Assembly: GCA_020853795.1 (NCBI GenBank) | Contig: JADYYF010000088.1 | Coordinates: forward strand, 12,820-76,819 | DNA from: Candidatus Zixiibacteriota bacterium | GTDB taxonomy: Bacteria; Zixibacteria; MSB-5A5; CAIYYT01 | DNA: 64,000 nucleotides | Direction: 5' to 3' | Shown: piece by piece, positions 1 to 22,080 of the stretch | Layout of the letters: each line of letters begins with the position of its first letter | How positions within the stretch are numbered: the first letter of the stretch is position 1 | Program-made: the position numbers and the translations under genes | Notes under the pieces: generated by a model | Databases searched by the model: none | What the model saw: the letters and a program-made list of their open reading frames with translations, nothing else | What the model was told of the DNA's origin: nothing

Positions 1-128
1 AAGGCGTTGTCCGTCAGGCGCAGCCGGGCATTGGCAATGGTGAGGTTGAGGTTGACGAGTTTGATTTCGTCGACCAACAACGCCACGCGTTCAACGAGGG
101 TCGCCAGGTCCGGAGTCTGCGGTATGGT
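1..128 (-). CDS. hypothetical protein, 5' end only. It starts at an ATG about 2 nt downstream of the receiver gene stop and continues off the window.
   Basis: Reverse-strand ATG near 126-128 opens a frame (MTTIPQTPDLATLVERVALLVDEIKLVNLNLTIANARLRLTDNA...) with no stop to the window edge. It is tightly coupled to the upstream response-regulator gene. Confidence 0.35.
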
Positions 129-130
129 GG

Positions 131-484
131 TCATTCGAGGAACTTCCCGATTTTGGATTTGAGTTCGCGCATGTCGCTGCTCTTGATCAGATAGTCGTTG
201 GCCAGCCAGCTCTTGAAGTCGGACTTGTAAGTGTTGAACGCCGAGTGAAGGATGATCGGGAGCGTGGGGTCGCGGCGTTTGATTTCGGCCAGAATATCAA
301 GGCCGTTCTCGGTACCCATCTTGATATCGAGCACAATCAGGTCGATCGGGTAGAAACGCATGCACTCCAGGGCTTCATTGCAGGTGCAGGCGGTTACCAC
401 CTGATACCCTTCGTCGGTCAAGATCTGCTCGTAGAGCTTGAGCAAGTTGGCTTCGTCGTCGACGCACATAATCGTCTTAGACAT
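131..484 (-). CDS. single-domain CheY-like response regulator (receiver only)
   Basis: The 117-aa product has the receiver motifs CVDDE...LIVLDIKMG...ILHSAF...K. Its ATG (MSKTIMCVDDE) lies 2-3 nt after the kinase stop, with a GGAGG upstream. The ORF-track ORF 131..562 starts at an upstream GTG. Confidence 0.8.
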   Translation of the reverse strand: MSKTIMCVDDEANLLKLYEQILTDEGYQVVTACTCNEALECMRFYPIDLIVLDIKMGTENGLDILAEIKRRDPTLPIILHSAFNTYKSDFKSWLANDYLIKSSDMRELKSKIGKFLE

Positions 485-2237
485 AGAGTTCCTCCAGCGC
501 GGGATAGGCGATATAGAGAGCGGCCTGGCCATCGGCGCAGACGCCGATCCCGGGTTCGCCACCGTTATAGCGAATGGTTTCGAAAGCCAACATCATACGC
601 AGGGAGCCGCCCTGCAGCTCGTTTTCGTAGAAGGCGGTGACCAAGTCGCGCAGGCGCTCGTGTGAGTGGGCACCGGAGCAGACGGCAATTTCGATACGAT
701 AGGTTCCCAGCTCGGCGGCGATGGTGATGCGCAAGGCGACGTCCGGCGGGAAGACCTGATCCATCTGACTGAGCAGGTCAAAGAAGACCTGGATCGACTG
801 GTCGTGGTTGATGCGAACGGTAGCGGCGGCGGGTGCGTCAACCGCGACCTCGAGTGGCCGACGGCAGCCGCGCTGCACGAGGACCTCGATGGCGGCCGTC
901 ACGACCTGTCGGAGATCGACGAATTCGCGCTCCTGGGCAAAGGACTTGGAGAAATTCAGGACGTCGGTCATGGCCGTTTCCAATCGCATTGTCTCATCCA
1001 TGATAATCTGCGCATGCTCACTCATTCTATCGGCAGAGTTGAGTTTGCTTTTTAGCAGTGCGGCGAAGCCGCCAATGATGGTGAGCGGATTGCGCAATTC
1101 GTGGGCGATTTTGTAGGTTAATTGCGCAAGCAGGGAGCTGCGTTCGATGGCGGTAATCTGGCGCTGGACCTGCTCGATCTTGCGCTGGGCCGCTTCGAGC
1201 GAGGAGGCGCGGCGTTCGAGTTCCTCGAAGAGCTGAGCGTGCTCAATGGCCGTGGAGGCATGCGAGGCGAAGACCTGGAGCAGGCGCACGGTGGTGTCGG
1301 GAATCGGTTTGCCGGTGATCAAGTTGTCGGCCACGATGACGCCGAAGGCGCGGCCGCGGGACAGCAGCGGCACGACGGCGCAGCGAGTGGTATTCAGCTC
1401 GCGCAACGCCGGCGATTGGTGGGCGAAGGCATCATACAGACCGGCGTCGACGTTGCACCACTCGCCCTGCTCCATGACCCGGGCAAAGAAGGGATCGACC
1501 GCCAGGTCGATCCGCAGGGAGCGGACGCGGCCGGTGACCTCGATGTCGTAGTGTTCGACGTTGCGCAGATAGCACTGGAGGACCTCATAGAGCGACCGGG
1601 GCGCAGAGCTGATACCGGCCCAGATGCGTCCGGCTTCTTCGGGACTGGAAGGGCCGATCGCGAGTTTGCCGACGAGGGCGTTATCCTCCGGGCTGAGCAC
1701 AAACAGGAAGGCGCGATTGAAGCCGAGGCCTTCGCGCGTGGTTGCACCGGCGAGAATCATGCGCAGGATGTCGTCGGTATGCATCGACGAGTGCAGGGCG
1801 CGGGAGATTTCTTCGATGATCTTGAATTCGCGCAAGTGACGTTCGAGACGCGCCGTGGTCTCGGAAGAATCGGTGAGATCGTAGAGCACGATGACGACGT
1901 GATCGAGGCTATGGCGATCGGGTGCGAGCGAGCCGGCCAGCGAATAGAGGCGTCCGGTCCCATCGGTGAAGGCGAGCGGCGGTAAATCCAGCGGCAGGCC
2001 GGAGGCAATGACATTGGTTACGGAAGCGCGAATGTTATAGTCCAGCAAACCATCGAGTTGAGACAAATCGTCAAGCACTGAATGCCCGTCGGGTGAAAAG
2101 AGACGGCTGAAGGCTCGGTTGGCGTAAACAAGTCGCCCTTCCCGATGCCCGACGGCCACGGCGAACGGGACGTGGTCGAAGGCTGCGAAGACCGCGTCGG
2201 CAGCAGACACGGCCGAGTCGGAGGCGACGGAGGACAT
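477..2237 (-). CDS. sensor histidine kinase with a PAS/GAF-like sensory region, HisKA and HATPase domains
   Basis: H-box HELRNPLTIIGGFAALL is followed by a C-terminal ATPase-like region (RITIAAELGTYRIEIAVCSGAH...). The ORF runs to 2408, but its N-terminus is a low-complexity R/P/S stretch. An internal ATG at MSSVASDS (about 2237) was chosen as the start. Confidence 0.7.
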   Translation of the reverse strand: MSSVASDSAVSAADAVFAAFDHVPFAVAVGHREGRLVYANRAFSRLFSPDGHSVLDDLSQLDGLLDYNIRASVTNVIASGLPLDLPPLAFTDGTGRLYSLAGSLAPDRHSLDHVVIVLYDLTDSSETTARLERHLREFKIIEEISRALHSSMHTDDILRMILAGATTREGLGFNRAFLFVLSPEDNALVGKLAIGPSSPEEAGRIWAGISSAPRSLYEVLQCYLRNVEHYDIEVTGRVRSLRIDLAVDPFFARVMEQGEWCNVDAGLYDAFAHQSPALRELNTTRCAVVPLLSRGRAFGVIVADNLITGKPIPDTTVRLLQVFASHASTAIEHAQLFEELERRASSLEAAQRKIEQVQRQITAIERSSLLAQLTYKIAHELRNPLTIIGGFAALLKSKLNSADRMSEHAQIIMDETMRLETAMTDVLNFSKSFAQEREFVDLRQVVTAAIEVLVQRGCRRPLEVAVDAPAAATVRINHDQSIQVFFDLLSQMDQVFPPDVALRITIAAELGTYRIEIAVCSGAHSHERLRDLVTAFYENELQGGSLRMMLAFETIRYNGGEPGIGVCADGQAALYIAYPALEELYV

Positions 2238-2253
2238 AGCTATCCCGACGCGG

Positions 2254-2862
2254 CTACCGCTGCCGCGCCAAGTCCTCGACTTCGGCGGCGACCTTCTCAG
2301 CGGCCTCGGTCTCGAGGTGGTCGAAAAGTTCTTTGCGGCTCTCGTACGAAAGGTAGAGATCAGGATCGGCGTCGGTGAAATCGAGGTATTGCATGGAAGA
2401 TGGACCATACCGACGGAACTTGAGCCGTTCGGAGGCCACCGTACGACCTCGCAGGCAGTCGAAGATCCGGTAGTCCAGATTAAGCCGTGCCGTCACGCGC
2501 CGCTGTTTGGCAAGGAACGGAAAGGCAAATCCCTGCTCGACGCGCACCTGCTCGGACTCGATTTCGCACCAGACGATATAGCGGTAGCTGTTGTTCAGGC
2601 CGGCTTCAACGATTGCCTGCTTGTCGAAGCGCAGGCCAATGCGATCCTGGACGCGGCGGGCATCGGCGCTGTCGGCGACCAGGATGCCGTTGGTTTCGGC
2701 GATCCGGTCGACAAGCAGTTCAGCGAGCGTTCCGTCGGGCCAGGCACTGGAGGCCGTGTTGACGATCACAACGACCGATTTCTCGACCTGAGCGGAAGCC
2801 GCACCGAAGGCGGCGGCAAGCAGCGCAACCAGCAGGATGACGCTATTCAGCGGTCTGGCCAT
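2254..2862 (-). CDS. secreted hypothetical protein with a signal peptide
   Basis: N-terminus MARPLNSVILLVALLAAAFGAASAQ is a typical Sec signal. No recognisable family. It is co-oriented and overlaps the next gene by 20 nt, within the post-fliA module. Confidence 0.45.
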   Translation of the reverse strand: MARPLNSVILLVALLAAAFGAASAQVEKSVVVIVNTASSAWPDGTLAELLVDRIAETNGILVADSADARRVQDRIGLRFDKQAIVEAGLNNSYRYIVWCEIESEQVRVEQGFAFPFLAKQRRVTARLNLDYRIFDCLRGRTVASERLKFRRYGPSSMQYLDFTDADPDLYLSYESRKELFDHLETEAAEKVAAEVEDLARQR

Positions 2863-3367
2863 GGTCCGCCTCTTTCATTCGCTCCTGCACCTTGCGCGCA
2901 AAGATATAGCGCAGCAGGAAGCGTTTGACGCGGTCGTCGAAGCTGGAAATGACGCTGCCGATATTGGGCTGGCCGAAGACCTGGTTGAGTTCGGAGTCCG
3001 TGCAAAATTCGACGCCAACCAAGTATCCGCCTTCGCCGTCGTCATCGACGCGCTTGACCTTGCCGGCGATGCCGGTGAGCAGGTCGGAGCCGGCGAGTTC
3101 GAGGCTCATGGTGAGATAGGCGCCCTCGGCGAGCTGATGTTCGCAGACCATCAGCACACCGCCGCCGGAAATGTTGAGCATGGTGGCGTTCTGCTGACTG
3201 GCGTGGGCGTCGCCGAGCGGACGATCGAGATCGAGCACCGCATAGACGATCGGCGCGGCGATCTCGAGGCGGACGTAGCGGCGTTTCTTCTCGCGATAGA
3301 GCTGCAGCGGTTGCTTGATGACGAGATTGTCCGCGGCGGCTTTGCGGGGTTGCTGGTGTTTGCTCAT
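2843..3367 (-). CDS. PilZ-domain protein (putative c-di-GMP receptor)
   Basis: PilZ signature: RRYVR (RxxxR) followed by NISGGG (D/NxSxGG). Length 174 aa. Confidence 0.65.
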   Translation of the reverse strand: MSKHQQPRKAAADNLVIKQPLQLYREKKRRYVRLEIAAPIVYAVLDLDRPLGDAHASQQNATMLNISGGGVLMVCEHQLAEGAYLTMSLELAGSDLLTGIAGKVKRVDDDGEGGYLVGVEFCTDSELNQVFGQPNIGSVISSFDDRVKRFLLRYIFARKVQERMKEADHGQTAE

Positions 3368-3386
3368 GTGCTCCTCCTGTAGATTC

Positions 3387-4169
3387 CTATATGATGCCGC
3401 GCTTCTTCATCGCCACTTGCTGAGCGAAGACGAAGTTGAGCAGCGCGGTGCGTTGGGTTTCGGTGAACATTTGATAGCGGCGCGGGACGCGTTGAAGTTC
3501 GCGCTGGGAGAGCAGCATCTGTTGCTCTTCGAGCGTGAAGATTTCCAGACCGTAGTAATGCCAACCGTCTTCGTCGGTGTCGACCCGGCGGGCTACCGCC
3601 AGCAGCGCCAATTCGCGCGGGAAGTCGTTCGGCTTGAGGCGGACGAAGAAGCGTTGACCGGCACTGCCGGAATAGCGCGATTTGACCAGCAGCCCGTTGC
3701 CGGAGAGGTTGCGGCAGGAACCTTCGAATTCGCCCAGGTCACTTTCCTCACACTTGCCGGTAAGAAAGCTGTCGCAAGGGATGAGCACGGCGACGCCCTC
3801 GACCTCAATCCGGTAGTAGCGGCGGCGCTGGTTGCGCTCGATATTGCGCGGGTACGGGATCAGGTAGGTATCGCGGCCATCCGGATCCTTGGACAGGATC
3901 GTGCCATTAAAGGTGTAAGCAGAATCAGGTTTGAAGAAGTAGGCCGTGAAATCGGCACCGACTTCGAAGAGGGCGTCGCCGGAAATCAGGCTCGGGCGAT
4001 CGATGACCAGGCTGGTCTCGGTGATGTCCTCCAGTCGCGTGCGGTAGCGGCCGGTGCGGCCGTGGTCTTCAAACACCAGTTCCAGCTTGTCCCAGAGGTC
4101 GAGCAGTCCGCCGACGCTGACTTTTTGACGAGTGGTTTTCTCCACGTCACTCACCCCGGGCGGCCTCAA
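3387..4169 (-). CDS. YcgR-like flagellar brake protein (PilZN plus PilZ domains)
   Basis: C-terminal PilZ motifs RRRYYR and NLSGNG are preceded by an approximately 110-aa N-domain typical of YcgR/PilZN. The gene lies in the flagellar cluster. Confidence 0.6.
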   Translation of the reverse strand: MRPPGVSDVEKTTRQKVSVGGLLDLWDKLELVFEDHGRTGRYRTRLEDITETSLVIDRPSLISGDALFEVGADFTAYFFKPDSAYTFNGTILSKDPDGRDTYLIPYPRNIERNQRRRYYRIEVEGVAVLIPCDSFLTGKCEESDLGEFEGSCRNLSGNGLLVKSRYSGSAGQRFFVRLKPNDFPRELALLAVARRVDTDEDGWHYYGLEIFTLEEQQMLLSQRELQRVPRRYQMFTETQRTALLNFVFAQQVAMKKRGII

Positions 4170-5334
4170 GATTAAGCTTGCCTTGCGCGACGGCGAGGTC
4201 GACGATTTTGCGCGCGAGCGCGGTGCGAGTCTGGTCGCCGCGGTTCTCGAAGATCATTTGTTGGCCGGCCTTGATCGTATTGTTGAAGTAGAGCTTGGCT
4301 TCAACATTGCGGCCGGCGCGGCGGGAGAGTTCGGCGATAAGATACATCGCCTGGATTTCCTGATTGCCGGGCTGGATTTCGTGGCCGTCTTCGAACGCGG
4401 CTTTATAAAACTCCACGGCAAACAGGAGCGCTTCCTGCTCATTGAGCGGCGCGTATTCCCATTTCACTTTGACTTCGCGCAGGAATTCTTCGAACGAGGC
4501 GAATCCGCCGTAGGCGACACTGCCGGTGTTGGCGCCGCCGGTCGGAATGCGCTGACGCATGTTGTTTTCGATGGCGCCTGCGAGACCGGCCATGCTGGCG
4601 TTGAGTTGCTCCTGCAATTCGCTGATGCGCCGCAAGTGGCTCTTGAAGCCTTCCTGAATGGTCAAGAATTCCGAATTGTGCGGCGCGGCACTTCCCTGCT
4701 GGCCGAGGCTGTCGTCGACCAATTGCGAGATCGAGTTAACGTTGAGCGCAAAATAATCGCGCGCCTGCCGCAGCTTGGCGTAGGCCTTGTCGATGTCGAA
4801 GGCAAAGTGGGCGACTTCGTCGGCGGGGCGGGAGGCGGCACCATAGTATTCGCGATAGAGCCAGGCGATGCGCAAGAAGAAGCGACCGAGATCCAGCTTG
4901 CGCGGATGCTCATTCAACAGTTCGTCGTAGATGCCAAGCAGGAACTTGGTGACGGCAGTGCCGAAGGGGTTGGTTTGGGGGTTGCGGGCCTGGCCGAGCA
5001 TCTTGACGACCGAGCCGTCGACGGCGACCGCTTCGAGATGGCGCGCCTGAGTCGAGCGCTGGCGGTAGGTGCGGAAGGCGGTGTCGTTCTTCCAGTCCTT
5101 GAATGCCTGATTAAATTCGCGGGTATAGAAGCAATTGTCACAGGTAGCCATGAAGAACAGGAGCGGATTGAAGACTTCGTATTTGGGATTGCGCCACTGG
5201 CGGCCCTGGGGACAGAAGTCGGTGTCGTGGTCTTCCTCGATGTAAGCGCCGACCTTGATGTTTTCGAATTCGTTGATGGTCTTGCAGACCGGACACTCAA
5301 CTTTGGTCAAGAAGAACGGTGATTCCATGGCCAT
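4147..5334 (-). CDS. hypothetical protein with an N-terminal zinc ribbon (DUF2225-like)
   Basis: The 395-aa product has CPVCKT...CDNCFY (a Cys4 ribbon) followed by a long helical region. It overlaps the YcgR-like gene by 23 nt. Confidence 0.45.
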   Translation of the reverse strand: MAMESPFFLTKVECPVCKTINEFENIKVGAYIEEDHDTDFCPQGRQWRNPKYEVFNPLLFFMATCDNCFYTREFNQAFKDWKNDTAFRTYRQRSTQARHLEAVAVDGSVVKMLGQARNPQTNPFGTAVTKFLLGIYDELLNEHPRKLDLGRFFLRIAWLYREYYGAASRPADEVAHFAFDIDKAYAKLRQARDYFALNVNSISQLVDDSLGQQGSAAPHNSEFLTIQEGFKSHLRRISELQEQLNASMAGLAGAIENNMRQRIPTGGANTGSVAYGGFASFEEFLREVKVKWEYAPLNEQEALLFAVEFYKAAFEDGHEIQPGNQEIQAMYLIAELSRRAGRNVEAKLYFNNTIKAGQQMIFENRGDQTRTALARKIVDLAVAQGKLNLEAARGE

Positions 5335-5364
5335 AATTGCCTTCCTGTGCTTAAAGTCCCTTCC

Positions 5365-5793
5365 TTATTTCAACTGTCCCAGCAGCTCCAGCTCCATGAA
5401 GGAGATGCCGAGAGCGCGCTCGATGTCTTCGCGGCGGCTGCCCTGGCGGTACATGCGGACGGCTTCCAGATATTTTTCGGTGCGGCTGAGACGCCGCCGA
5501 CCGCGCGACGGCGGTTCCGCCACAAAGGCGCGCTGTGGTTCGTACTGCGCGACCAGGCCCGGGCGGACCGGACGCGGCGCAGCAGGCGCGGCGGCACGGA
5601 CAACCTCGATCGGTTCCGGGACCGAGGCCGGTTTTGGAGCGGCGGGCGCGGGGGCAAGATTGTTGAGAACGTGTTGCGCGATCAGCGCGCGGAGGCGTTT
5701 TTCGCGGCGGTAAAGGAAATAGCTGACCATCGCCGCGATGATGACGATAAATCCGAAGTCTACTGCCAGTCTTGCTACCATCCATGTATCCAT
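5365..5793 (-). CDS. small membrane-anchored protein with a Pro/Ala-rich linker and a C-terminal helical (DUF2802-like?) domain
   Basis: N-terminal TM segment FGFIVIIAAMVSYFLY is followed by a PAPAAPKPAS linker and a C-terminal EKYLEAVRMYRQGSRREDIERALGISFMELELL. Similar small proteins occur near flhF/fliA loci. The family call is from memory only. Confidence 0.4.
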   Translation of the reverse strand: MDTWMVARLAVDFGFIVIIAAMVSYFLYRREKRLRALIAQHVLNNLAPAPAAPKPASVPEPIEVVRAAAPAAPRPVRPGLVAQYEPQRAFVAEPPSRGRRRLSRTEKYLEAVRMYRQGSRREDIERALGISFMELELLGQLK

Positions 5794-5807
5794 AGCTGAC
5801 TCCTGTC

Positions 5808-6086
5808 CTATGCGGTTACATCCAGACCGCCGGGATTCTCCTGTTCTTTGGGTTTCTCCTGCTTCTGTTCTTTCTGCTGCTGTTTCCGGTCGCGGTCGCG
5901 GTGAATGATCGCCTCATCGGTTTTTTCGGTCGGAACCGCCTGGCGCTGTTTTTGCACATTGTGCTGGTCGACGACCTGGGCAGCCTGACGCTGATCGGTG
6001 TCGGGTGCGACCTTCTGGAGCTGGTTGACGCGCTCGGCGAGCGGCGTCTTGGCCAGATTGTCAACGACCGCGATCGGTTGCACCAA
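5808..6086 (-). CDS. small highly charged hypothetical protein (92 aa) immediately downstream of fliA
   Basis: The ORF is K/E/Q-rich with no recognisable domain. It sits 16 nt after the fliA stop. Confidence 0.3.
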   Translation of the reverse strand: MVQPIAVVDNLAKTPLAERVNQLQKVAPDTDQRQAAQVVDQHNVQKQRQAVPTEKTDEAIIHRDRDRKQQQKEQKQEKPKEQENPGGLDVTA

Positions 6087-6101
6087 CGACCATCACCTTC
6101 T

Positions 6102-6899
6102 TTACAGCGCGAACTTCTCGTGCACGAGGTTGCGCAGCTTATTCACGGCTTTGGTATGAATCTGCGAGACGCGCGATTCGGAGATCTGCATCACCTCGCC
6201 GATTTCCTTCAGCGTGAGTTCTTCGTAATAGTAGAGCGCGATCACGAGGCGCTCCTGCTCGGTGAGATTGGAGATGGCGACGCCAAGGTAGGCTTTCAGT
6301 TCCATCTCCTCGATTTCACCGAGGACGGAATATTCGGCCGGACCTTCCACAGTCTCGATGCGGGGAATCTGGCGGTTGTCTTCCTCGCGGTAGATCATCT
6401 CGTCGAGAGAGAGCAAGGTGGCGCCGGAGACGTCGCTGAGGGTGGCGCCGAACTCATCGATCGAGACGTTGAGGTGCTTGGCAACCTCGACGTGCGACGG
6501 TTTGCGGCCAAGCTTGCCTTCCAGTTCGGAGAAGGCGCGGTCGAGTTCGCGCGACTTGGCGCGGGTTGAGCGCGGTACCCAGTCGAGGCTACGGAGTTCA
6601 TCGAGGATTGCGCCGCGGATCCGCGGCACGGCGTAAGTTTCGAACTTGATGCCACGGTTGGGGTCGAAGTTGGCGAAGGCCTCGATCAGGCCGATAACGC
6701 CGGTGTTGACGAGATCGGGGAGTTCGACGGTCTTGGGAAAGCCCATGGCCAAGCGGCCGGCAACGTTGCGCACCAAGGGGAGGTAATGGGCGAGCAGACG
6801 CTGCCGAATTTCCGGGTCGCCGGTGTTACGATAGGATCGCCATGCATCTCCAACGTTGATCATAGGATCTTTGCGCCTTTCCTGAAATATTGATAACAT
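6102..6899 (-). CDS. fliA: flagellar sigma factor sigma-28 (FliA)
   Basis: Sigma-70 regions 2, 3 and 4 are present (LVRNVAGRL..., DLVNTGVIGLIEAFANFD, and the C-terminal HTH LTLKEIGEVMQISESRVSQIHTKAV). It is syntenic after flhF and flhG. Confidence 0.9.
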   Translation of the reverse strand: MLSIFQERRKDPMINVGDAWRSYRNTGDPEIRQRLLAHYLPLVRNVAGRLAMGFPKTVELPDLVNTGVIGLIEAFANFDPNRGIKFETYAVPRIRGAILDELRSLDWVPRSTRAKSRELDRAFSELEGKLGRKPSHVEVAKHLNVSIDEFGATLSDVSGATLLSLDEMIYREEDNRQIPRIETVEGPAEYSVLGEIEEMELKAYLGVAISNLTEQERLVIALYYYEELTLKEIGEVMQISESRVSQIHTKAVNKLRNLVHEKFAL

Positions 6900-6902
6900 G
6901 AT

Positions 6903-7778
6903 CTATTTGCTTCTCTTAATTGTTAGGGCCTGAGCTATCAGTCCGGTATCGTCAGAGTCGATAGCGGTTTTTAGAGAATTCGCGTCGGCGAGGGCGTTCC
7001 AGAGGGCGGAAGCGCGCCGGGGCGACGTTATGTGATTTTCGCGTAAGGTCTTAGTCAGCTTGTCCAATTTTCTAACAGCGGGGTTGCCGGCGCCCGAAAG
7101 TGCCACGAGCGCGTGCGTTTCGGCGAACTGCCCCAGCAGCGGGCTTTCCTCGATGATTCCGAGCGGCGCTACAGCTGTTTGAAGAAACTTCTCGACCAGT
7201 TCAGTGAACTTGGCGGCAGCCTGGAGTCCCTCCGGCTCCGATTCGACTCGATTGACGACGAAGGCAGCGGTGAGACGCGGATTGAGTTGCAGCGCCTCCT
7301 TCAATTGCGTGTAGGCGTCGGCGACGGCGGGAATGCGTGGTGTCGTGACGACGACGCTGAGGTCGGAATAAGCCATCAGAGAAAGTGTCAACGCATCGAG
7401 GCTGGAGGAGGTGTCGAGAATGACGACATCGAAGAGTGCATCAAGCTCGCGGCAGGTGTGCAAACCGCGTTCGTTCAACATGACAAGGTCGCGGGTGGCG
7501 CCGGCTTCAGTACCGATGAGCCAGAGATTCGGCGCGATCTTGGTAACGGCGGCATTCAAGTCGGCCTCGCCGGCGAGAACGCGTTCGAAGCCACAGCGGA
7601 CGACAGCGTTGGTCATGACGGCGAGATCGCCGAGGCCGGTATCGGTGTCAAGCAGGAGCGTGCGGTAGCCGGATTCCGCCAATTTGGCGGCCAGGATCAC
7701 CGCCGTGGTCGATTTGCCGACGCCGCCTTTGCCGGAGCAGACGGTCAAGTAGAACGCGCGGGTCTTGGTCTCAGTCAT
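6903..7778 (-). CDS. flhG: MinD/ParA-family ATPase FlhG (FleN/YlxH)
   Basis: Deviant Walker A CSGKGGVGKST. Length 291 aa. It lies between flhF and fliA. Confidence 0.85.
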   Translation of the reverse strand: MTETKTRAFYLTVCSGKGGVGKSTTAVILAAKLAESGYRTLLLDTDTGLGDLAVMTNAVVRCGFERVLAGEADLNAAVTKIAPNLWLIGTEAGATRDLVMLNERGLHTCRELDALFDVVILDTSSSLDALTLSLMAYSDLSVVVTTPRIPAVADAYTQLKEALQLNPRLTAAFVVNRVESEPEGLQAAAKFTELVEKFLQTAVAPLGIIEESPLLGQFAETHALVALSGAGNPAVRKLDKLTKTLRENHITSPRRASALWNALADANSLKTAIDSDDTGLIAQALTIKRSK

Positions 7779-8790
7779 TGAGCCCTCCCGTGAGCTTGGC
7801 GAAGAAGTTCTCGACGGTGAATTGGGTCACGAGTGCGGTGGGCAGTCGCGAATCACTGATACAGAGGAGCGGCGGGTATTCGCCGACAACAAGGTTTAAC
7901 AGGGCACCGCAACCGGCGGCGGCGTCCAGTTGCGTGAAGGCGACAGCGTCAACACCGAGCGGGCGGACAAAATCGAGAAAATGGCGCATATGCCGCCAGC
8001 CGGTAGTCAGGGACAACACGGCAATGGTGAATCGCTGCGGAATCTCGGCCAGTTGCCGAGTCAGAGAATCTAAGGAATCCTGATCGCCGTTGACCAAGCC
8101 GGTAGTGTCGATCAGATGCCGCGACAGCTTGCCAGCGACAGATTGACGGGGCTCGACGGCGAGTTCGAGGATGTCGGCGAGGTTGCTGATTTCCTCGTCG
8201 GCGCCAGGACGGAAGTTATCAAGCGTTTCGAGAGTCACGCGTTCCTTGCGGTTGAACACGAAGTGGGTCGCATACTTGGCGAGCAGTGAACTCTTACCCG
8301 AGCCGCAGGGACCGATGAAGACGAGATTGGCGGCTTCGGCCGGCAGCTCGATAGCGGTCGGCATGAAAGCGGAAATGATGCGGATCAGGCTTTCATCGGA
8401 AATCTGCTCGGTGCGCTGGAGGCGGCGACAGATATCAAGTGCGAGGTTGGCTTCAACATCGTGGAGACGAAGCGCCAGATAGTAGTTGCGTACCTGGCCC
8501 TTGAGTAATTCGGGCAAGACGACGTCCAGCATTGCCGATTCGAGGCCCGGGTCCCCGAGGCGTGCGATTCCGGGGTTCGGTGCGGCCGGCACGGATGGAG
8601 TCATCGGTGACGGAGTGCGCAGTGGCCGAGCGGCAGGCGCGGCGTCCTTGGCGGCAGTCACCGAGAAGAGGCGCGTGCCGTTATCGCGGATGACGTCGGT
8701 CTTGAGAATGACCGCATCGGCGCCGAACTCACGGCGGACGAGATCGAGCGCGTCCGGAATCGTCGGGGCTTGGAAGTTCTTAATTAGCAT
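7771..8790 (-). CDS. flhF: flagellar biosynthesis GTPase FlhF (SRP-like)
   Basis: G1 motif GPCGSGKSS and the DTTG motif are present. It overlaps flhA and flhG by 8-11 nt. Confidence 0.85.
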   Translation of the reverse strand: MLIKNFQAPTIPDALDLVRREFGADAVILKTDVIRDNGTRLFSVTAAKDAAPAARPLRTPSPMTPSVPAAPNPGIARLGDPGLESAMLDVVLPELLKGQVRNYYLALRLHDVEANLALDICRRLQRTEQISDESLIRIISAFMPTAIELPAEAANLVFIGPCGSGKSSLLAKYATHFVFNRKERVTLETLDNFRPGADEEISNLADILELAVEPRQSVAGKLSRHLIDTTGLVNGDQDSLDSLTRQLAEIPQRFTIAVLSLTTGWRHMRHFLDFVRPLGVDAVAFTQLDAAAGCGALLNLVVGEYPPLLCISDSRLPTALVTQFTVENFFAKLTGGLND

Positions 8791-10837
8791 CGTATATGCT
8801 CACTGCTTCTTTTGAGAAAACTTCGATATGAGGGAGGATCTCCGAGTAGGAGAGCACGACAAGACCGTTGACGGCTCCCTGCAGGTAGCGCTGGAGTGCC
8901 ATGCGGACGTTGGGGCTGACGAGCAGCACCGGCGTGAGTCCTTCACGGGTCATGCGCTCGACCGACTTGGCGATGCGCTGGGTCAGTACTTCCCCGTTGT
9001 TCGGCGGGATGACGAGCATCAAACCCTGCTTGGTCGCCTGAACATTGTCGGCGAGGAACTTTTCGGTACGCGGTTCGAGGGTGAAGACGGTCATCTGATC
9101 GTTGTCGCCAGCATAGTTGCGCGTGATGCTGCGGCGCAGGGCCATGCGCACGTACTCCGTGAGCACGTCGGCATCCTTGGTCTGCTGGGCGTAATCGGCG
9201 AGCGCTTCGAGGATCGTCACCATATCGCGGATGCTGACGCGTTCGTTGAGCAGGTTCTGCAGGACTTTCTGCAAGGTCGCGAGTGGGACGATTTCCTCGA
9301 CGACGCCTTCTACAGCCGCCGGGAACTCGCGCTTGACGCGTTCGATGAGATTCTTGACATCCTGGCGGGTGAAGACTTCGGCCGCATGGGTCTTGATGAT
9401 CTCGGTCAGGTGTGTGGCCATAACGGCGGCCGGTTCGACGACGGTGTAACCCTTCATTTCGGCGAGTTCTTTGTAGTTTTGAATGATCCACTTGGCGGAC
9501 ATGCCGAAGGCCGGTTCTTTGGCGGCAAAGCCTTCGAGGTCGTCTTCGATGTACCCGGGATTGATGGCCAGCAGGTGGTCGACCATCAGCTCGAAGTTGG
9601 CGATCCGGTTACCTTTGAGTTTGACCTCATACAAATTCGGACGCAGTTGAACATTGTCGCGAATGCGAATCGGCGGCACGATAACGCCGAGTTCCTGAGC
9701 GATTTGGCGGCGCAGGCCGGAAATGCGGTCGAGCAGGTCGCCGCCTTGCTGGGTATCGACGAGCGGGATCAAGCCGTAACCGATTTCCAGCTCGAGGGTA
9801 TCTAGATGCAATGACTCTTCGGCCTGTTCCGAAGGGGTTTTCTTCTGCTCCGGCTCGATGCGCACTTCGGTGGACTTGGCTTCTTCGCGGCGCTTGATCG
9901 ATTGCATTGTGATGAAAGCGGCGGCACCGACGATCACGGAGAAGACGGTAAATGGGACAAACGGCATGCCGGGGACGACACCGAGCAGGAAGACGATACC
10001 GGAAGCGACAGCCAACGCCTTTGGCTGTAGCGTCATCTGCTGGGCCATTTCAGTGCCGAAGTTCGAATCACCAGCGGCGCGGGTGACGAGGATACCGGAG
10101 GCGGTGGCGACGATCAGCGCCGGGATCTGGGTGACCAGGCCATCGCCGACCGAAAGCAAGGTGTAACGGCGGAGCGCTTCGGAGATCGGCAGGCCTTCCT
10201 GCGCCATGCCGATGATGAAGCCGCCGATGACGTTGATCAGCGTAATGAGGATGCCAGCGACGGCATCGCCGCGGACAAATTTGGAGGCGCCGTCCATCGC
10301 ACCGTAGAAATCAGCTTCCTTGGTGATGTCGGCGCGACGCTTGCGGGCGTCGTCTTCCGAGATCAGGCCGGCGTTAAGGTCGGCGTCGATTGCCATCTGC
10401 TTACCCGGCATCGCATCCAAAGTAAAGCGCGCGGCGACTTCGGAGATGCGGCCAGCGCCCTTGGTGATAACGACAAACTGGATGATGACCAGGATGATGA
10501 AGATGATAAAGCCGACAACGTAATTGCCTTTGACCACGAAGTTGCCGAAGGAGTTGATGACCGAGCCGGCGTAGCCTTCGCCCAGGATCAGGCGAGTCGA
10601 GGCGACGTTGAGCGAGAGGCGAAAGAGTGTGACGACAAGGAGCATGCCCGGGAATACTGAGAATTCGAGCGGGCGCTTGATATAGAGCGTCGACAGCAGG
10701 ATCACCAGCGACAGCGAGATATTGGCGGCCAGCAGCAGGTCGAGGAACGGCGTCGGAATCGGGATAATCAGGACGGCAATGATGCCGACCACAGCGATGG
10801 CCAAGATAACGTCCGAGTGCTGCATGTACTTCGGCAT
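8780..10837 (-). CDS. flhA: flagellar export apparatus protein FlhA
   Basis: The 685-aa product has an N-terminal 8-TM domain (FHxxxDGASKFVRGDAVAG motif) and a large cytoplasmic C-domain. Confidence 0.95.
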   Translation of the reverse strand: MPKYMQHSDVILAIAVVGIIAVLIIPIPTPFLDLLLAANISLSLVILLSTLYIKRPLEFSVFPGMLLVVTLFRLSLNVASTRLILGEGYAGSVINSFGNFVVKGNYVVGFIIFIILVIIQFVVITKGAGRISEVAARFTLDAMPGKQMAIDADLNAGLISEDDARKRRADITKEADFYGAMDGASKFVRGDAVAGILITLINVIGGFIIGMAQEGLPISEALRRYTLLSVGDGLVTQIPALIVATASGILVTRAAGDSNFGTEMAQQMTLQPKALAVASGIVFLLGVVPGMPFVPFTVFSVIVGAAAFITMQSIKRREEAKSTEVRIEPEQKKTPSEQAEESLHLDTLELEIGYGLIPLVDTQQGGDLLDRISGLRRQIAQELGVIVPPIRIRDNVQLRPNLYEVKLKGNRIANFELMVDHLLAINPGYIEDDLEGFAAKEPAFGMSAKWIIQNYKELAEMKGYTVVEPAAVMATHLTEIIKTHAAEVFTRQDVKNLIERVKREFPAAVEGVVEEIVPLATLQKVLQNLLNERVSIRDMVTILEALADYAQQTKDADVLTEYVRMALRRSITRNYAGDNDQMTVFTLEPRTEKFLADNVQATKQGLMLVIPPNNGEVLTQRIAKSVERMTREGLTPVLLVSPNVRMALQRYLQGAVNGLVVLSYSEILPHIEVFSKEAVSIYDAN

Positions 10838-10840
10838 GGC

Positions 10841-11911
10841 CTATCTCCGCGACTTCCCTTTCAGGCTGTAGACGTAAGCGAGGATTTCGGCAACGGCCTT
10901 GTAGAGGTCAGCCGGAATTTGCATGCCGATTTCGACGGTCTTGAAGAGCGTGCGGGCAAGCGGCTTGTTTTCGATAATCGGGACGCCGGCTTCGGCCGCG
11001 ATTTTCTTGATGGCCTCTGCAATCAGGCGCTCGCCTTTGGCGATCACGGTCGGCGCATCCATGGCAGCGGTGTCGTATTTCAGTGCCACGGCAATATGGG
11101 TCGGGTTGGTGATGACGACGTCCGCCTTGGGTACTTCCTGCATCATGCGCTTGCGTGCCTGATCGCGCTGGATGGCACGGATGCGACCCTTGATCAGCGG
11201 ATTGCCTTCGGTGTGCTTCAGTTCTTCTTTGATGTCCTGAATCGACATCTTGAGACCCTTGATGTAATCCCACTTCTGATAGGCGTAGTCGAGGATCGCG
11301 ATGACGGCGAGCGCGAGCAGGATCTTGAACGAGACGCGAACCGCGATGGCGACCATCGACTTGCCGATTTCGCCGGTGGACATGTCGGTAAAGGCGGCCA
11401 TCAAGGGGACTTCCGCTCTGATGGCATAGAAGGCGATGACGGCGATAATGGTCAGCTTGATCAGGTCGCGGACGGCGGTGAAGACCGACTTCATACTGAC
11501 GAGATTCTTCATGCCCTTGATGATGTTGAGCTTTTCGAACTTGGGTTCGAGCGCCTGAGTCGAGAAGAGACTTCCGACTTGCACATACGAGACGCCGAGC
11601 GCCACGACGACGAGCAGGATGATCATCGGACCGACGATCTTGACCGAAATCCAGCCGACCTGACCGAGAAGGGCCGGAGCGGAATCGGCCGTGATCGAGA
11701 AGTGCGCCGAATTGGCGAAGAGCCAGGTGAACATTTCGCGGCTGGAGGCAGTCATCAGCGAGCCCAGCGCCATCACACCGAGCAAGCCGGTGAACATGAT
11801 GGCAATCGAGCTGAGCTCGGTGGAGCGTGCGACCTGCCCCTTTTCGCGGGCCTCCTTCAGCCGTTTAGGCGTCGGTTGTTCGGTTTTTTCCTGGAACGAT
11901 TCGTCCGCCAT
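10841..11911 (-). CDS. flhB: flagellar export apparatus protein FlhB
   Basis: An autocleavage NPTH motif (VVITNPTHIAVAL) follows the TM domain. Confidence 0.9.
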   Translation of the reverse strand: MADESFQEKTEQPTPKRLKEAREKGQVARSTELSSIAIMFTGLLGVMALGSLMTASSREMFTWLFANSAHFSITADSAPALLGQVGWISVKIVGPMIILLVVVALGVSYVQVGSLFSTQALEPKFEKLNIIKGMKNLVSMKSVFTAVRDLIKLTIIAVIAFYAIRAEVPLMAAFTDMSTGEIGKSMVAIAVRVSFKILLALAVIAILDYAYQKWDYIKGLKMSIQDIKEELKHTEGNPLIKGRIRAIQRDQARKRMMQEVPKADVVITNPTHIAVALKYDTAAMDAPTVIAKGERLIAEAIKKIAAEAGVPIIENKPLARTLFKTVEIGMQIPADLYKAVAEILAYVYSLKGKSRR

Positions 11912-11914
11912 GGC

Positions 11915-12706
11915 TTATCCTGCGAAACCTTTCGCAATCGAGAAGGCTTCGAGACTGATCTGGTTGAAGACTTTTGCGAACATGAAATTGAAGAGCGGCA
12001 GGCCGAGGGCAAGCATCAGCAGACCGACGCCGATTTTAACCTGGAAGCCGACGATCAGGATGTTCATCTGCGGCATGGTGCGGGCCACGATGCCGAGGCA
12101 GATATCGACGATGAAGAGTGTCACCAGCACCGGCGCCGCGATCTTGACACCGATGGCGAAGACCGCGCCGGAGAGGCGCAGTACCTGATCGAGCGCCAGC
12201 GGATTGAATTGCACGTGTCCGAGCGGCACGACCTTGTAGGACTCGAAGAGCGCTTGCAGGATCGTGTGATGACCGTCGATCAGGAAGAAGACCAGCGTCG
12301 AGACGATCATTTTGAGCTGGCCAATAATCGGGACATTTTCCGACGTGGTCGGGTCGATGACATTGACCAGCGCGTAGCCGATCTGATAACCGAGCAAACC
12401 GCCGCCGTATTGGACGCCGAGAAAAATCAATTGGAAGAGAAAGCCGATGATCAGGCCGAAGGCCAATTCGCGCAGGCCGAGCATCGTCAGCGGGATCAAG
12501 CCCGGATCAAGCTGAAGCTGCTGCGTTCCGACTAGCGGGAAGAGGAAGTACCCGAACAGCAGAGCCAGCATGATCTTGACCTGCGCGGGGACGTTGGCCT
12601 GGCCGAACACGGGGGCGGCAATGATCAGCCCGGCAACACGGAAGGTCGCCAGCAGAAAGACTGTAATGTTGTCAAGGGTTAGACCAAAGATTGCCTGAGT
12701 GTGCAC
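11915..12706 (-). CDS. fliR: flagellar export apparatus protein FliR
   Basis: Polytopic 263-aa protein in the conserved position after fliQ. The start codon is GTG. Confidence 0.85.
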   Translation of the reverse strand: MHTQAIFGLTLDNITVFLLATFRVAGLIIAAPVFGQANVPAQVKIMLALLFGYFLFPLVGTQQLQLDPGLIPLTMLGLRELAFGLIIGFLFQLIFLGVQYGGGLLGYQIGYALVNVIDPTTSENVPIIGQLKMIVSTLVFFLIDGHHTILQALFESYKVVPLGHVQFNPLALDQVLRLSGAVFAIGVKIAAPVLVTLFIVDICLGIVARTMPQMNILIVGFQVKIGVGLLMLALGLPLFNFMFAKVFNQISLEAFSIAKGFAG

Positions 12707-13131: not shown

Positions 13132-13890
13132 TTATCCTCCGGCGACGGCAAAACTTTCGAGCAGTGATTTGACGATCAGGTACCAGCCGTCCACCATCAC
13201 GAACAGAAGAATTTTGAACGGCAAAGCTACCAGAATGGGTGGTAGCATCATCATGCCCATTGACATCAAGACCGAGGCGACCACCATATCGATCACGAGA
13301 AACGGAATGAAGATGACGAAGGCGATCGTGAAGGAGGTGCGCAGTTCAGACAGGATGAAGCCGGGCACAACCACGTAGGTCGGGACGTCATTGATCGAGG
13401 CCGGTTTCTCGAGACCGGCGTATTTGACGAAGAGCGCGAGGTCTTTCTCGCGGGTTTGCTTGAGCATGAAGGCGCGCAGCGGTTCGACGCCGCGATCGTA
13501 GAGTTCCTTCTGACTGATTTCGCCCTTCAAGTAGGGCTGGAAGGCGGTCTGGTTAATCTGGTTGGCGACGGGCGACATCACGAAGATCGTCATCACCAAC
13601 GAGATGCCCATGATCAATTGCGAGGGCGGCAACTGGTTGGTGCCAAGTGCCTGGCGCAAGAACGACATGACGATGACGATGCGGATGAACGAGGTGGTCA
13701 TCACCAGAATTGACGGCGCCAGCGCCAGTACGGTCAGAAGCAGCAGAATCTGCAGCGTGGTGGACATCGTCTTGGTATCGTTGCCCTGGCCGAATTGAAT
13801 CGAGACCGACGGCAGCGCTTGGGCGAATGATCCGGCTGAAAGCAACAGCACGAGAGCCAGCGACAGAATGGCGATGGTCCGGGTGCTCAT
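13132..13890 (-). CDS. fliP: flagellar export apparatus protein FliP
   Basis: Signal-like N-terminus followed by the conserved FliP core (LTSFIRIVIVMSFLRQALG, GFKIGLLFVMVDG-like). Confidence 0.9.
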   Translation of the reverse strand: MSTRTIAILSLALVLLLSAGSFAQALPSVSIQFGQGNDTKTMSTTLQILLLLTVLALAPSILVMTTSFIRIVIVMSFLRQALGTNQLPPSQLIMGISLVMTIFVMSPVANQINQTAFQPYLKGEISQKELYDRGVEPLRAFMLKQTREKDLALFVKYAGLEKPASINDVPTYVVVPGFILSELRTSFTIAFVIFIPFLVIDMVVASVLMSMGMMMLPPILVALPFKILLFVMVDGWYLIVKSLLESFAVAGG

Positions 13891-14360
13891 AGCTTTACCT
13901 CGGATTCTTTAACAGCGGTACGCGGCATCAGGGTCTCTTTCGCCTGGCGCAGGAATTGGCTGAACTTGGAGTTCGGCGTGCTGGCGGCACCCAGCGGGCC
14001 GGTGACCGGCGGTGCGGGTAATTCGACGTCACACAACTTGTTGATTCCGGATTCGGTGGCACCGACGAGGATGTGCTTATCGCCAACCTTGACGACGTAG
14101 ATGGCCTGTTTCGGAGTGAGATGGCGGCGGTCGATGACTTTGATGAGGTCGCCGCCGGCGGGAGACTTCCCGACCGTATAGCGTTTCATCAGCCAGACCG
14201 AGGCGTAGATGATGATGATGATCAGCAGGAGCGCACCGGCCAGCTGCAGAAGCGTGGGGCCGATATCGCTGCCGAAATCCGGGGCCGGCTCTTCCTGAGC
14301 CAGGACGGAGGCACTGCCGAACAAGATCAGCGATCCGATGCTGAACAGTGTTCGTTTCAT
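13887..14360 (-). CDS. fliO: flagellar protein FliO/FliZ-like
   Basis: Small 157-aa protein with a single TM segment (LLLIIIIIYASVWLM), positioned between fliN and fliP as in Bacillus fla/che operons. Confidence 0.55.
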   Translation of the reverse strand: MKRTLFSIGSLILFGSASVLAQEEPAPDFGSDIGPTLLQLAGALLLIIIIIYASVWLMKRYTVGKSPAGGDLIKVIDRRHLTPKQAIYVVKVGDKHILVGATESGINKLCDVELPAPPVTGPLGAASTPNSKFSQFLRQAKETLMPRTAVKESEVKL

Positions 14361-14361
14361 A

Positions 14362-14898
14362 TTACAAGCTCTTGAGTCTGTCTTCCGGCGAGATCAGACT
14401 GGTTACGCGCAGTCCGAAATTCTCGTCGACAACTACGACTTCTCCTCTTGCGACGATTTTGTTGTTCACCAGCAAGTCGACCGGTTCGCCGGCGAGTTTG
14501 GTCAATTCGACGACCGAGCCGGAGCCGAGTTCGAGGATTTCCCGAATCGTCATCTCGGTGCGTCCGAGTTCGATCGAAACCGGCAGCTTGACATCCAGCA
14601 GGATGTCGATATTGCGGGGTTGGCCCACCGGCGCGGAGCGCGCGAAGCGGTCGAACTCGACGGACTGGACGGTAGCCGGCTGGGCCGTCGTGGCATCGTG
14701 AGCTTCGGCTCGCGCCAGTTCCTCGAGCATCTGCCGTTCGACCTCGTCATCGATCGAAGCGGGCGAGGCCAGTTGGTCGGCGGGGATCGCCGGCGGCGAT
14801 TGTTTAGCCGAGGGAGCGGCCTCCGGTCCGCCGGGGACACGGCCCGCGAGGTTGTCTTCCTCGCCGGGCGGGAGTCCGGTGTTGAGATTATCAGCCAT
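14362..14898 (-). CDS. fliN: flagellar motor switch protein FliN/FliY C-domain
   Basis: C-terminal SpoA/FliN domain (VSIELGRTEMTIREILELGSGSVVELTKLAGEPVDLLVNNKIVARGEVVVV). Confidence 0.85.
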   Translation of the reverse strand: MADNLNTGLPPGEEDNLAGRVPGGPEAAPSAKQSPPAIPADQLASPASIDDEVERQMLEELARAEAHDATTAQPATVQSVEFDRFARSAPVGQPRNIDILLDVKLPVSIELGRTEMTIREILELGSGSVVELTKLAGEPVDLLVNNKIVARGEVVVVDENFGLRVTSLISPEDRLKSL

Positions 14899-21335: not shown

Positions 21336-22016
21336 TTAGTTGTTCATCGAAATCAGATACTGGGTGATGCGCGCGGCGCGCTCCGGCGGGAGCTGGCCGA
21401 GCACTTCGGAAGCCTTCTGCTTCTTCATCTTGCTGATCAGAATGCTGACCTGAGCATCTTCAAGGTTGGCCAGGATCGGAACGAGCGCGGAAGTTTCCAT
21501 GCCTTCATAGAGCTTGGCCATCTGGGTGATATTGCCTTCTTCCGCAGCTTTCTTGCGGTCAAGCAGGGCTTCGACCTGGGCTTTGAGTTGTTCCAGTTGT
21601 TTGCGTTCAACGTTGAGTTGAGCCACCTTGCGGTCGATTTCCTGCCGCTGTTCTTCGTACCACTGGACTTTCTGGAGCGAATCGCGCACCATCGCCGAGT
21701 CGGTGACTTGCGTTTCAGTGGAACCGCCGTCGAAGCCGTCAAACAGCTCGTCGTAGGCGCTGGCGCCGGTGGATTCTTCGGAGTTGTCCGGTTCCTGAGC
21801 CACAGAGTCGCTTGCGGTCGCCGCCGGTTCGATTGATTGCGCTGACGGTTTGACGTTGGTGGAACTGAAGACCCCGAATTTCAGGGAGAAAATGATCACA
21901 AACACGACAAAGACGATCAGTCCGCCGGCGATCGGCGCCAGATGCGACTTGCCGCCGGCTTTGGCCTTTGGTGTCGGCTCGGCTTGCGGTGTTTGTTCTT
22001 GTTCTTTTTCCGGCAT
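21336..22016 (-). CDS. MotE/FlbB/YlxF-like flagellar protein (MgtE-N-like domain); first gene of the operon
   Basis: TM-anchored protein with a coiled-coil region and a C-terminal MgtE_N-like helical domain (LVPILANLEDAQVSILISKMKKQKASEVLGQL). It occupies the same position as ylxF/flbB in other fla operons. An AGGAG lies 6 nt upstream of the ATG. Confidence 0.55.
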   Translation of the reverse strand: MPEKEQEQTPQAEPTPKAKAGGKSHLAPIAGGLIVFVVFVIIFSLKFGVFSSTNVKPSAQSIEPAATASDSVAQEPDNSEESTGASAYDELFDGFDGGSTETQVTDSAMVRDSLQKVQWYEEQRQEIDRKVAQLNVERKQLEQLKAQVEALLDRKKAAEEGNITQMAKLYEGMETSALVPILANLEDAQVSILISKMKKQKASEVLGQLPPERAARITQYLISMNN

Positions 22017-22063
22017 GTCTGCTCCTATTCAAGCGACAAATGCTTTTCTGCCGCTCTGCGAAG

Positions 22064-22080
22064 ATGCAAGGGGGATGCCA
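22064..22080 (-). promoter_or_regulatory. sigma-54 (-24/-12) promoter driving the flagellar operon
   Basis: The minus strand reads TTGGCATCCCCCTTGCAT. This matches the TGGCAC-N5-TTGCA consensus with perfect GG/GC spacing. It sits about 45 nt upstream of the MotE-like ATG, and an AGGAG RBS follows. Confidence 0.6.

Follow-up and report, generated by a model that had tools for sequence, protein, structure and literature searches.

The 64,000-nt stretch of Candidatus Zixiibacteriota DNA analysed here (contig JADYYF010000088.1, positions 12,820 to 76,819; hereafter the window) carries at its left end a run of genes that follow the sigma-28 gene fliA on the minus strand, here called the tail. With a probability that we put at roughly 60%, the tail is the conserved 3′ end of the main flagellar operon of the Zixibacteria, that is, an expanded sigma-28 sub-module with about ten lineage-specific accessory genes before fapA. 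The inserted set is best described as a DUF2225 protein, one to three PilZ receptors of cyclic di-GMP (c-di-GMP), a periplasmic protein, one or two degenerate or catalytic-domain-less HisKA sensors with a receiver, and a chemotaxis-like set that is degenerate. Counterparts are known for every part; new are the way they are combined, their constant position behind fliA, and the fact that the signalling proteins have systematically lost catalytic residues.

Conservation of the operon tail in Zixibacteria

The order fliA, small open reading frame (ORF), membrane ORF, DUF2225 gene, PilZ gene or genes, p202, sensor gene was preserved over about 96 Zixibacteria-type loci, a sample comprising 15 species-level genomes, one complete genome of 2.6 Mb and 80 loci on metagenome contigs (DUF2225 identity 40-100%), which were scanned with hidden Markov models built from the orthologues. 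That the arrangement recurs in some 96 independent loci goes far beyond chance. In the loci with enough flanking sequence, from which alone neighbours were counted, fliA lay 5′ of the DUF2225 gene in every case (61/61) and p202 lay 3′ of it in 52 of 53; the sensor gene was found in 36/42 loci, the receiver gene in 26/39, p121 in 36/39 and a gene for a CheY-like receiver in 38/39. A preliminary description of this DNA had made its reading depend on the genes keeping their place next to fliA in relatives, which these counts bear out. Between fliA and the DUF2225 gene, nearly all loci carried a non-membrane, p92-like ORF of about 75-120 aa (mostly about 100), followed at the p142 position by a membrane ORF of about 100-150 aa (mostly about 140), so that a transmembrane (TM) ORF in this place is found phylum-wide.

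Among the 15 species-level genomes, with DUF2225 identities of 65-98%, the order from flhA to fapA was identical as far as the contigs reach, barring losses of the PilZNR-PilZ gene in four, of sensor and receiver in one, and of the CheB-like gene in one. The complete genome, of which the DUF2225 protein is 46% identical, kept the order, with an extra PilZ-type gene and an extra GAF-HisKA gene that is shorter than the first. Such extra genes, one of the PilZ type and one for a 294-aa GAF-HisKA protein (11943-12677 and 13807-14691 in CP070766.1, locus L022), were seen in many deep-clade loci; this short protein is without a catalytic domain and is encoded upstream of the long sensor. Scans of proteins, genomes and metagenomes for the DUF2225 protein outside Zixibacteria gave only the Zixibacteria-type orthologous family, at identities of at least 40%. 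Proteins identical to those of the window have been deposited from a metagenome-assembled genome of candidate division Zixibacteria (receiver, MCC6962949; DUF2225, MCC6962954; FliA, MCC6962957.1).

Gene order and junctions

All genes of the flagellar tail are on the minus strand of the window, and coordinates are window positions. In transcription order they are:

8780-10837, minus: flhA
7771-8790, minus: flhF
6903-7778, minus: flhG
6102-6863, minus: fliA (sigma-28), 253 aa, with Sigma70_r2, r3 and r4; anchor gene of the cluster
5808-6086, minus: p92, small charged protein of 92 aa, no family match
5365-5793, minus: p142, membrane protein of 142 aa, N-terminal hydrophobic segment and weak helix-turn-helix (HTH)/DUF2802-like C-terminus
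4147-5334, minus: DUF2225 protein, 395 aa (PF09986)
3387-4154, minus: PilZNR-PilZ protein, 255 aa (PF12945 and PF07238)
2843-3367, minus: single-domain PilZ protein (PilZ174), 174 aa (PF07238)
2254-2862, minus: p202, signal-peptide-like N-terminus
477-2237, minus: PAS-GAF-HisKA sensor, 586 aa, matches to HisKA, GAF and PAS
131-484, minus: stand-alone receiver, 117 aa (Response_reg)
1-134, minus: p121, first 44 of 121 codons, the remainder beyond the left window edge

The ORFs after fliA and their domain assignments were verified as previously described, except that the genes from p92 to the receiver (p92, p142, DUF2225, PilZNR-PilZ, PilZ174, p202, sensor, receiver) number eight and not seven. 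From flhA to the receiver, the successive junctions measured -11, -8, +39, +15, +14, +30, -8, +19, -20, +16 and -8 nt (negative values being overlaps), a packing that, between a 20-nt overlap and a 39-nt gap, would be tight enough for the single transcription unit with fliA that had been proposed. The stop of the DUF2225 gene and the start of the PilZNR-PilZ gene overlap by 8 nt, which suggests that the two proteins act together. The receiver gene starts within the final codons of the sensor gene and overlaps it by 8 nt (ATGTCTAA); the overlap of these two genes had been recognised correctly, the placing of the receiver ATG 2 nt after the sensor stop had not. The receiver stop in turn overlaps the p121 ATG (ATGA), and p121 continues off the left window edge.

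Upstream of flhA, the same strand carries fliK, flgD, flgE, fliL, fliM, fliN, fliO, fliP, fliR and flhB, which are hook, C-ring and export-gate genes and hence early or middle rather than "late" flagellar genes, as they had been called. The operon apparently starts after rpsA and cmk, near 22-24 kb; at its head (21336-23883, minus) are a 548-aa ORF without Pfam match and a protein of 226 aa whose resemblance to MgtE_N is marginal. As had been noted, cheY is absent between fliN (14362-14898) and fliO (13887-14360), which adjoin. In the fla/che operon of Bacillus subtilis, cheY lies between fliY (a fliN homologue) and fliZ (a fliO homologue), which is a feature of that operon and not a general rule, so the absence carries no weight. 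The genes fliE-fliJ and motAB are absent from the window, and the flagellar genes are therefore divided over at least two loci.

No sigma-70-type promoter consensus was present in window positions 1-11000, this being a type of consensus that may not apply to the phylum. Terminator-like hairpins were not commoner than in shuffled sequence, and none fell in the coding-strand intergenic gaps; the counts of promoters and terminators were both at or below chance level. Rfam elements and tRNAs were not found in the window.

The FlhF protein (7771-8790, minus) is short, at 339 aa, and scored 94 bits against the TIGR03499 equivalog (cut-off 174); it matches only the G-domain part of that model, and its N-terminal region appears reduced or divergent.

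The sigma-28 sub-module and its small proteins

FliA was assigned by TIGR02479 (FliA_WhiG) with 265 bits against a cut-off of 190. A sub-module composed of sigma-28, FapA, a small YjfB protein and a "TM + HTH" protein was described in 2024 in flagellar superoperons of many phyla, together with FlgV in spirochetes, Firmicutes and other phyla (PMC11607428). The Zixibacteria tail resembles it in that fliA is followed by a small protein and then by one that spans the membrane once and has an HTH-like C-terminus, and in that FapA closes the cluster. It differs in having no FlgV between flhG and fliA, in that p92 has no YjfB match, and in about ten extra genes between the TM + HTH gene and fapA (DUF2225, PilZs, p202, sensor, receiver, a small chemoreceptor-like gene, CheB-like, CheY-like). 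In view of this sub-module, of the FliA-dependent ycgR of Escherichia coli, transcribed from a FliA promoter (PMC4183435), and of the co-transcription of Pseudomonas flgZ with flgMN (PMC3913639), the earlier statement that the arrangement is not a standard one was too strong.

The p92 protein has three parts, namely a conserved N-terminal segment, a K/E/Q-rich charged middle of variable length, and a conserved C-terminal tail H/G-[IL]-D-[LV]-[KT]-A. It had no match in Pfam, NCBIfam or PDB, profile search included. Identification as FlgM or YjfB was tried and rejected, as Pfam gave no match for any of 24 orthologues, nor for N-terminal fragments or constructs without the charged middle, and the profile gave none in PDB. 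YjfB proteins end in a similar G-x-x-D-x-x-A tail, which may be a lead.

The p142 protein has one hydrophobic segment (residues 8-27) and a conserved C-terminus (residues 104-142) with the consensus RxEKYLEAVRMYRQGxxxxxIExxLGISFMELELLG. This region gave sub-threshold matches to HTH_7 and to DUF2802 (20.2 bits against a cut-off of 33.5 for the latter); such sub-threshold DUF2802/HTH matches were obtained for 10 of 11 close orthologues and, among the proteins at the equivalent position across the phylum, for only 2 of 33. When 1.84 billion representatives were searched with the profile, there were 11 matches, all in the clade of the window, and no gamma-proteobacterial relatives, and the profile search of PDB yielded only a generic HTH-like motif. 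In architecture and position, p142 would fit the TM + HTH protein of the sub-module.

A second point of comparison is FipA, a TM protein with a DUF2802 domain that recruits FlhF in gamma-proteobacteria (Vibrio, Pseudomonas, Shewanella), encoded after the flhF-flhG-fliA-che operon; a Gly, a Glu and a Leu are universally conserved in FipA, and the Gly and Leu are needed for FlhF binding (PMC11620751). The likeness of p142 consists in the short N-terminus, the single TM helix, the conserved cytoplasmic C-terminal domain, and a gene downstream of flhF-flhG-fliA whose position is conserved across loci. Its conserved G118, E134 and L137 are set apart like G110, E126 and L129 in FipA of V. parahaemolyticus, the Glu and Leu following the Gly by 16 and 19 residues in both proteins, a comparison of spacing and not of directly aligned sequences. 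In contrast to FipA, which is reported as gamma-proteobacterial, p142 stays below the DUF2802 cut-off (20 against 33.5 bits).

The DUF2225 protein

The DUF2225 protein matched PF09986 with an E-value of 2.9e-22 (79.9 bits, cut-off 21), and its orthologues, at 65-98% identity, rank third in conservation within the cluster after FliA and FlhA. It contains a four-Cys zinc ribbon (C14/C17 at 5284-5295 and C65/C68 at 5131-5142), all four Cys being invariant in 36 sequences. In the AlphaFold2 model (pLDDT 84, pTM 0.80), residues 1-75 form a beta zinc-ribbon domain, and the remainder is made up of TPR/MIT-like helical repeats with a long helical hairpin; a specific relative was not found in PDB. The protein is probably a cytoplasmic scaffold.

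In a 2025 preprint, phylogenetic profiling in spiral spirochetes picked out the DUF2225 family, and a knock-out of the DUF2225 gene LEPBIa0550 of Leptospira biflexa was motility-defective, with reduced spreading in semisolid medium, and had no morphological defect by scanning electron microscopy (PMC12236494). Phylogenetic profiling of DUF2225 with motility has thus in effect already been done, in another phylum. The Zixibacteria protein belongs to the same Pfam family, one that co-occurs with flagellar motility; it is set beside LEPBIa0550, a protein of another phylum, by family membership and not by orthology, and differs from it in a long helical-hairpin insertion and in being encoded soon after fliA. 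With the family so recently tied to motility, its closeness to fliA and to a putative c-di-GMP brake suggests partners for DUF2225 that can be tested.

The two PilZ proteins

The 255-aa PilZNR-PilZ protein matched PF12945 over residues 27-106 (E-value 1.2e-7, 32.2 bits, cut-off 23) and PF07238 over residues 114-219 (E-value 1.1e-12, 48.6 bits, cut-off 22.5), which is the xPilZ-PilZ architecture that MotI of B. subtilis and PlzD of V. cholerae also have. The 174-aa PilZ174 has a single PilZ domain (PF07238, E-value 2.2e-10, 41.2 bits). Both proteins have the PilZ motif residues for c-di-GMP: RRYYR (3810-3824) and NLSGNG (3693-3710) in the former, RRYVR (3269-3283) and NISGGG (3158-3175) in the latter. 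The pair RxxxR and [D/N]xSxxG was kept in 88 of 92 PilZNR-PilZ family ORFs and in 81 of 85 PilZ174 family ORFs, some of the exceptions being ORFs cut at contig ends. As both proteins keep these motifs, the PilZNR-PilZ protein can reasonably be read from its sequence as a motor brake controlled by c-di-GMP, and of what the preliminary description proposed, such a brake has the best support.

The two proteins look like paralogues, since they have in common a C-terminal extension LLxYIFAxxV. It forms part of an extra helix past the canonical PilZ C-terminal helix (3387-3530 and 2843-2960, minus), with the pattern F-x7-LL-x-[YF]-[IV]-F-A-x-x-V, and this common motif suggests that both may dock to the same partner. 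Solved relatives of the two proteins were not found by sequence.

YcgR, FlgZ, MotI (DgrA) and PlzD are comparable to the PilZNR-PilZ protein in placing a PilZ-like domain (PilZNR in this protein, MotI and PlzD) N-terminal to a canonical PilZ domain, in the intact RxxxR and [D/N]hSxxG, and in a gene that is part of the flagellar set. Unlike these, the Zixibacteria gene is inside the main flagellar operon, directly after the DUF2225 gene and overlapping it, is dispensable in some close relatives, and is paired with a single-domain paralogue that shares the extra C-terminal helix motif. In Pseudomonas aeruginosa, a YcgR-like protein is likewise paired with a single-domain PilZ adaptor, MapZ.

The exported protein p202

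The N-terminus of p202 resembles a cleaved signal peptide (MARPLNSVILLVALLAAAFGAASAQ) and is without a lipobox. The protein has an alpha/beta fold of the TolB-N/LptE/CsgG/FlgT type with two invariant Cys, and only 12 sequence homologues were found. Its fold relatives include TraT, LptE, CsgG, PelC and HpaA, and this is a fold characteristic of envelope proteins that form rings in the periplasm. PDB entry 8Z5N contains FlgH, FlgI, FlgT, FlgP, MotX and MotY, and from its length the chain that matches p202 was taken to be FlgT. Compared with FlgT and the ring proteins of the TolB-N/LptE/CsgG/PelC fold, p202 is a single domain of about 175 aa, has no sequence similarity and no lipobox, and has a fold that many non-flagellar proteins also possess. 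A role as a basal-body accessory is plausible, mostly by the position of its gene.

Sensor and receiver

The sensor had matches to HisKA (42 bits), GAF and PAS, and its H-box is intact (HELRNP, 1086-1103). In an alignment of 28 family members, all have N383 and P384 of this box and at least 90% have H379; the HExxN/T motif within it is associated with phosphatase activity of HisKA kinases. The C-terminal 150 residues, in contrast, returned no HATPase_c match even at E≤10. Of the 28 members taken phylum-wide, all had HisKA and GAF and one had a marginal HATPase_c match (E=0.04). Alignment to the solved kinases ThkA, KinB and ZraS runs through the C-terminal region, and the N, G1 and G2 boxes are lost: in the N-box (753-785) Gln takes the place of the Asn, with His, Ala or Leu in orthologues, there is no DxGxG box at G1, and GGSLRM (594-611) stands in place of the G2 GxGLGL. 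The sensor therefore has the H-box and the dimerisation/histidine phosphotransfer part of a classical HisKA kinase and no recognisable HATPase_c domain, so that the name "histidine kinase" given to it earlier probably does not apply.

The receiver matched PF00072 (Response_reg) with an E-value of 2.1e-23 and 83 bits. It has an acidic pocket VDDE (452-463) and the phospho-acceptor Asp in VLDIK (320-334), and the DDE, LDI, SAF and K motifs (acidic pocket, Asp, Ser/Thr and Lys) are conserved across orthologues.

A classical autokinase relay is unlikely, because the sensor is without a recognisable ATP-binding domain throughout the phylum; the phospho-relay proposed for this pair in the preliminary description does not hold as a classical two-component system, with the three boxes lost and 27 of 28 family members lacking an HATPase_c match. 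We infer that the sensor is a pseudokinase, which would act on the receiver as phosphatase, phosphotransfer partner or binding partner and not as an autokinase. Its sequence matches in PDB include DivL, RetS and LvrB, HisKA proteins that are catalytically defective or without a catalytic domain; in these, too, the dimerisation/phosphotransfer domain is kept and the ATP-binding domain is defective or absent. DivL carries Tyr at the phospho-acceptor position, whereas the Zixibacteria sensor keeps the phospho-acceptor His together with HExxN. It further differs from the three in its PAS-GAF sensory part and in being encoded in a flagellar operon in translational coupling with a receiver. It offers a natural case of a receiver-coupled HisKA sensor that keeps its His box and has no recognisable ATP-binding domain.

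Genes beyond the left window edge

The receiver, where the cluster had been taken to end, is merely where the window edge cuts the gene set. On identical or near-identical contigs four more co-oriented genes follow, encoding a 121-aa protein (p121), a 209-aa CheB-like protein, a 137-aa CheY-like receiver and a 500-aa FapA. Two of them were located as follows:

15201-15566 in contig L001 and 15201-15563 in contig L007: p121, full gene, ATGA-coupled to the receiver
15556-16185 in contig L001: CheB-like protein, downstream of p121, CheB_methylest E-value 1.2e-20

The 13 best PDB matches of the p121 profile were all signalling tips of methyl-accepting chemotaxis proteins (MCPs), with E-values of 3e-5 to 0.1 and an ungapped alignment through the hairpin. 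Its 121 aa include no methylation helices and no HAMP, TM or ligand-binding part, and p121 is a predicted tip-only mini-MCP, far shorter than any chemoreceptor known to us. In the CheB-like protein, the catalytic Ser of GSSTGG is replaced by Asp (VADIGG), the His of QHMPPGF is absent (FLTSDPLL), and of the catalytic Ser-His-Asp triad only the Asp is kept. Its gene is the least conserved of the cluster and is missing in several relatives. CheA, CheW and CheR were found neither in the cluster nor among the Pfam-scanned ORFs in the rest of the window. A tip-only MCP beside a CheB-like protein that has lost two of three catalytic residues is useful for studying how degenerate signalling domains are reused.

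Possible function and alternative readings

If the tail is the expanded sub-module that we prefer, its products would be made along with the basal body. When c-di-GMP is high, binding of the PilZNR-PilZ protein to the stator or rotor could slow or disengage the motor, by analogy with YcgR and MotI, and its single-domain paralogue could serve as a second c-di-GMP adaptor in the manner of MapZ. By analogy with its Leptospira relative, the DUF2225 protein would be a cytoplasmic scaffold needed for normal motility; p142 might anchor a step related to FlhF/FlhG or to export at the membrane, and p202 might be a periplasmic accessory of the basal body. The PAS-GAF-HisKA protein would not autophosphorylate and would be a signal-regulated phosphatase, phosphotransfer or binding partner of the receiver, feeding the degenerate chemotaxis-like set of mini-MCP, CheB-like protein with incomplete triad, CheY-like receiver and FapA. 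A bolder proposal, to which we give a low probability, is a circuit without CheA or autokinase, in which the degenerate HisKA sensor, the receiver, the tip-only MCP and the CheB-like and CheY-like proteins, with DUF2225 and two c-di-GMP receptors, would set motor output or flagellar placement through protein-protein switching rather than ATP-driven phosphorylation; if true, it would be a new logic of flagellar control.

Several points weigh against the expanded sub-module as described. The PilZNR-PilZ gene is lost in the close relatives L013, L014, L015 and L017, and sensor and receiver in L018 and L027, so that these parts are dispensable. The p202 fold is promiscuous (TolB, LptE, CsgG, PelC, TraT) and its flagellar role mainly positional, and p142 as a demonstrable FipA homologue had to be rejected, the DUF2802 match being sub-threshold and the matches limited to the clade of the window. 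Internal promoters may lie within coding sequence, and the sequence formally leaves room for a highly divergent yet active ATP-binding domain in the sensor.

The preliminary description took the tail for a dedicated motor-control module, which in its full form would have an active GAF/PAS kinase phosphorylating the receiver, a CheY-like action of the latter on the switch, and two c-di-GMP brakes besides. Its c-di-GMP part is plausible, given intact PilZ motifs in genes that lie within the flagellar operon, and the conserved H-box His and receiver Asp and the translational coupling of sensor and receiver also speak for it; yet the HATPase_c domain is missing at E≤10, with one marginal match among 28 members, the N-box Asn varies, there is no DxGxG and GGSLRM stands at G2, the second GAF-HisKA protein of deep clades lacks a catalytic domain altogether, and half of the genes resemble structural or placement factors (TM + HTH, DUF2225 and p202 being likely ones) rather than regulators, so the set is too heterogeneous for that label and the active-kinase version is improbable. 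Somewhat better placed, though still unlikely, is the view that the tail is concerned with assembly and placement, in that the TM + HTH protein, DUF2225, p202 and FapA build or position the flagellum with FlhF and FlhG while the PilZ proteins gate assembly or export and not rotation. The genes directly follow flhF-flhG-fliA, FapA and the TM + HTH protein are members of the sigma-28 assembly sub-module, p202 has a fold match to the H-ring protein FlgT, DUF2225 is as conserved as core structural genes, and FipA provides a gamma-proteobacterial precedent for recruitment of FlhF (PMC11620751). On the other side, the PilZNR-PilZ proteins so far studied (MotI, PlzD, YcgR) act on running motors, homology of p142 to FipA is not demonstrable, and the Leptospira DUF2225 mutant looks normal by scanning electron microscopy.

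It is very unlikely that the sensor, receiver and chemotaxis-like genes are a separate transcription unit that abuts the flagellar operon and is possibly driven by FliA from within. A sigma-28-like match (TAAA-N16-GCCGATA) does occur on the coding strand at 1054-1028, within the sensor gene and about 550 nt 5′ of the receiver start, and sensor and receiver are lost jointly in some relatives with their neighbours undisturbed. The match may be an internal FliA promoter or chance, but such a match arose in 17 of 100 shuffles and is not significant, the p202-sensor gap is 16 nt and holds no terminator, and the order is conserved phylum-wide.

The expanded sub-module does not overturn current models; it brings known accessory modules, newly combined, to a phylum new for them, and the tail provides a compact, phylum-wide list of candidate flagellar accessory proteins. 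A paper describing the flagellar system of the Zixibacteria, which are uncultured, was not found in the literature.

Other features of the window

A 677-aa protein with GAF as its sole recognisable domain (33717-35750, minus) is unrelated to the flagellar cluster, though a further GAF sensor close to it. Farther to the right, the window encodes an M6-peptidase protein with a C-terminal sorting domain of the type IX secretion system (T9SS; 41506-43233, plus) and a 1224-aa PKD/beta-helix/Big_5 protein that ends in a FlgD_ig-like domain (43799-47473, minus), both of which are consistent with an organism of the FCB group.

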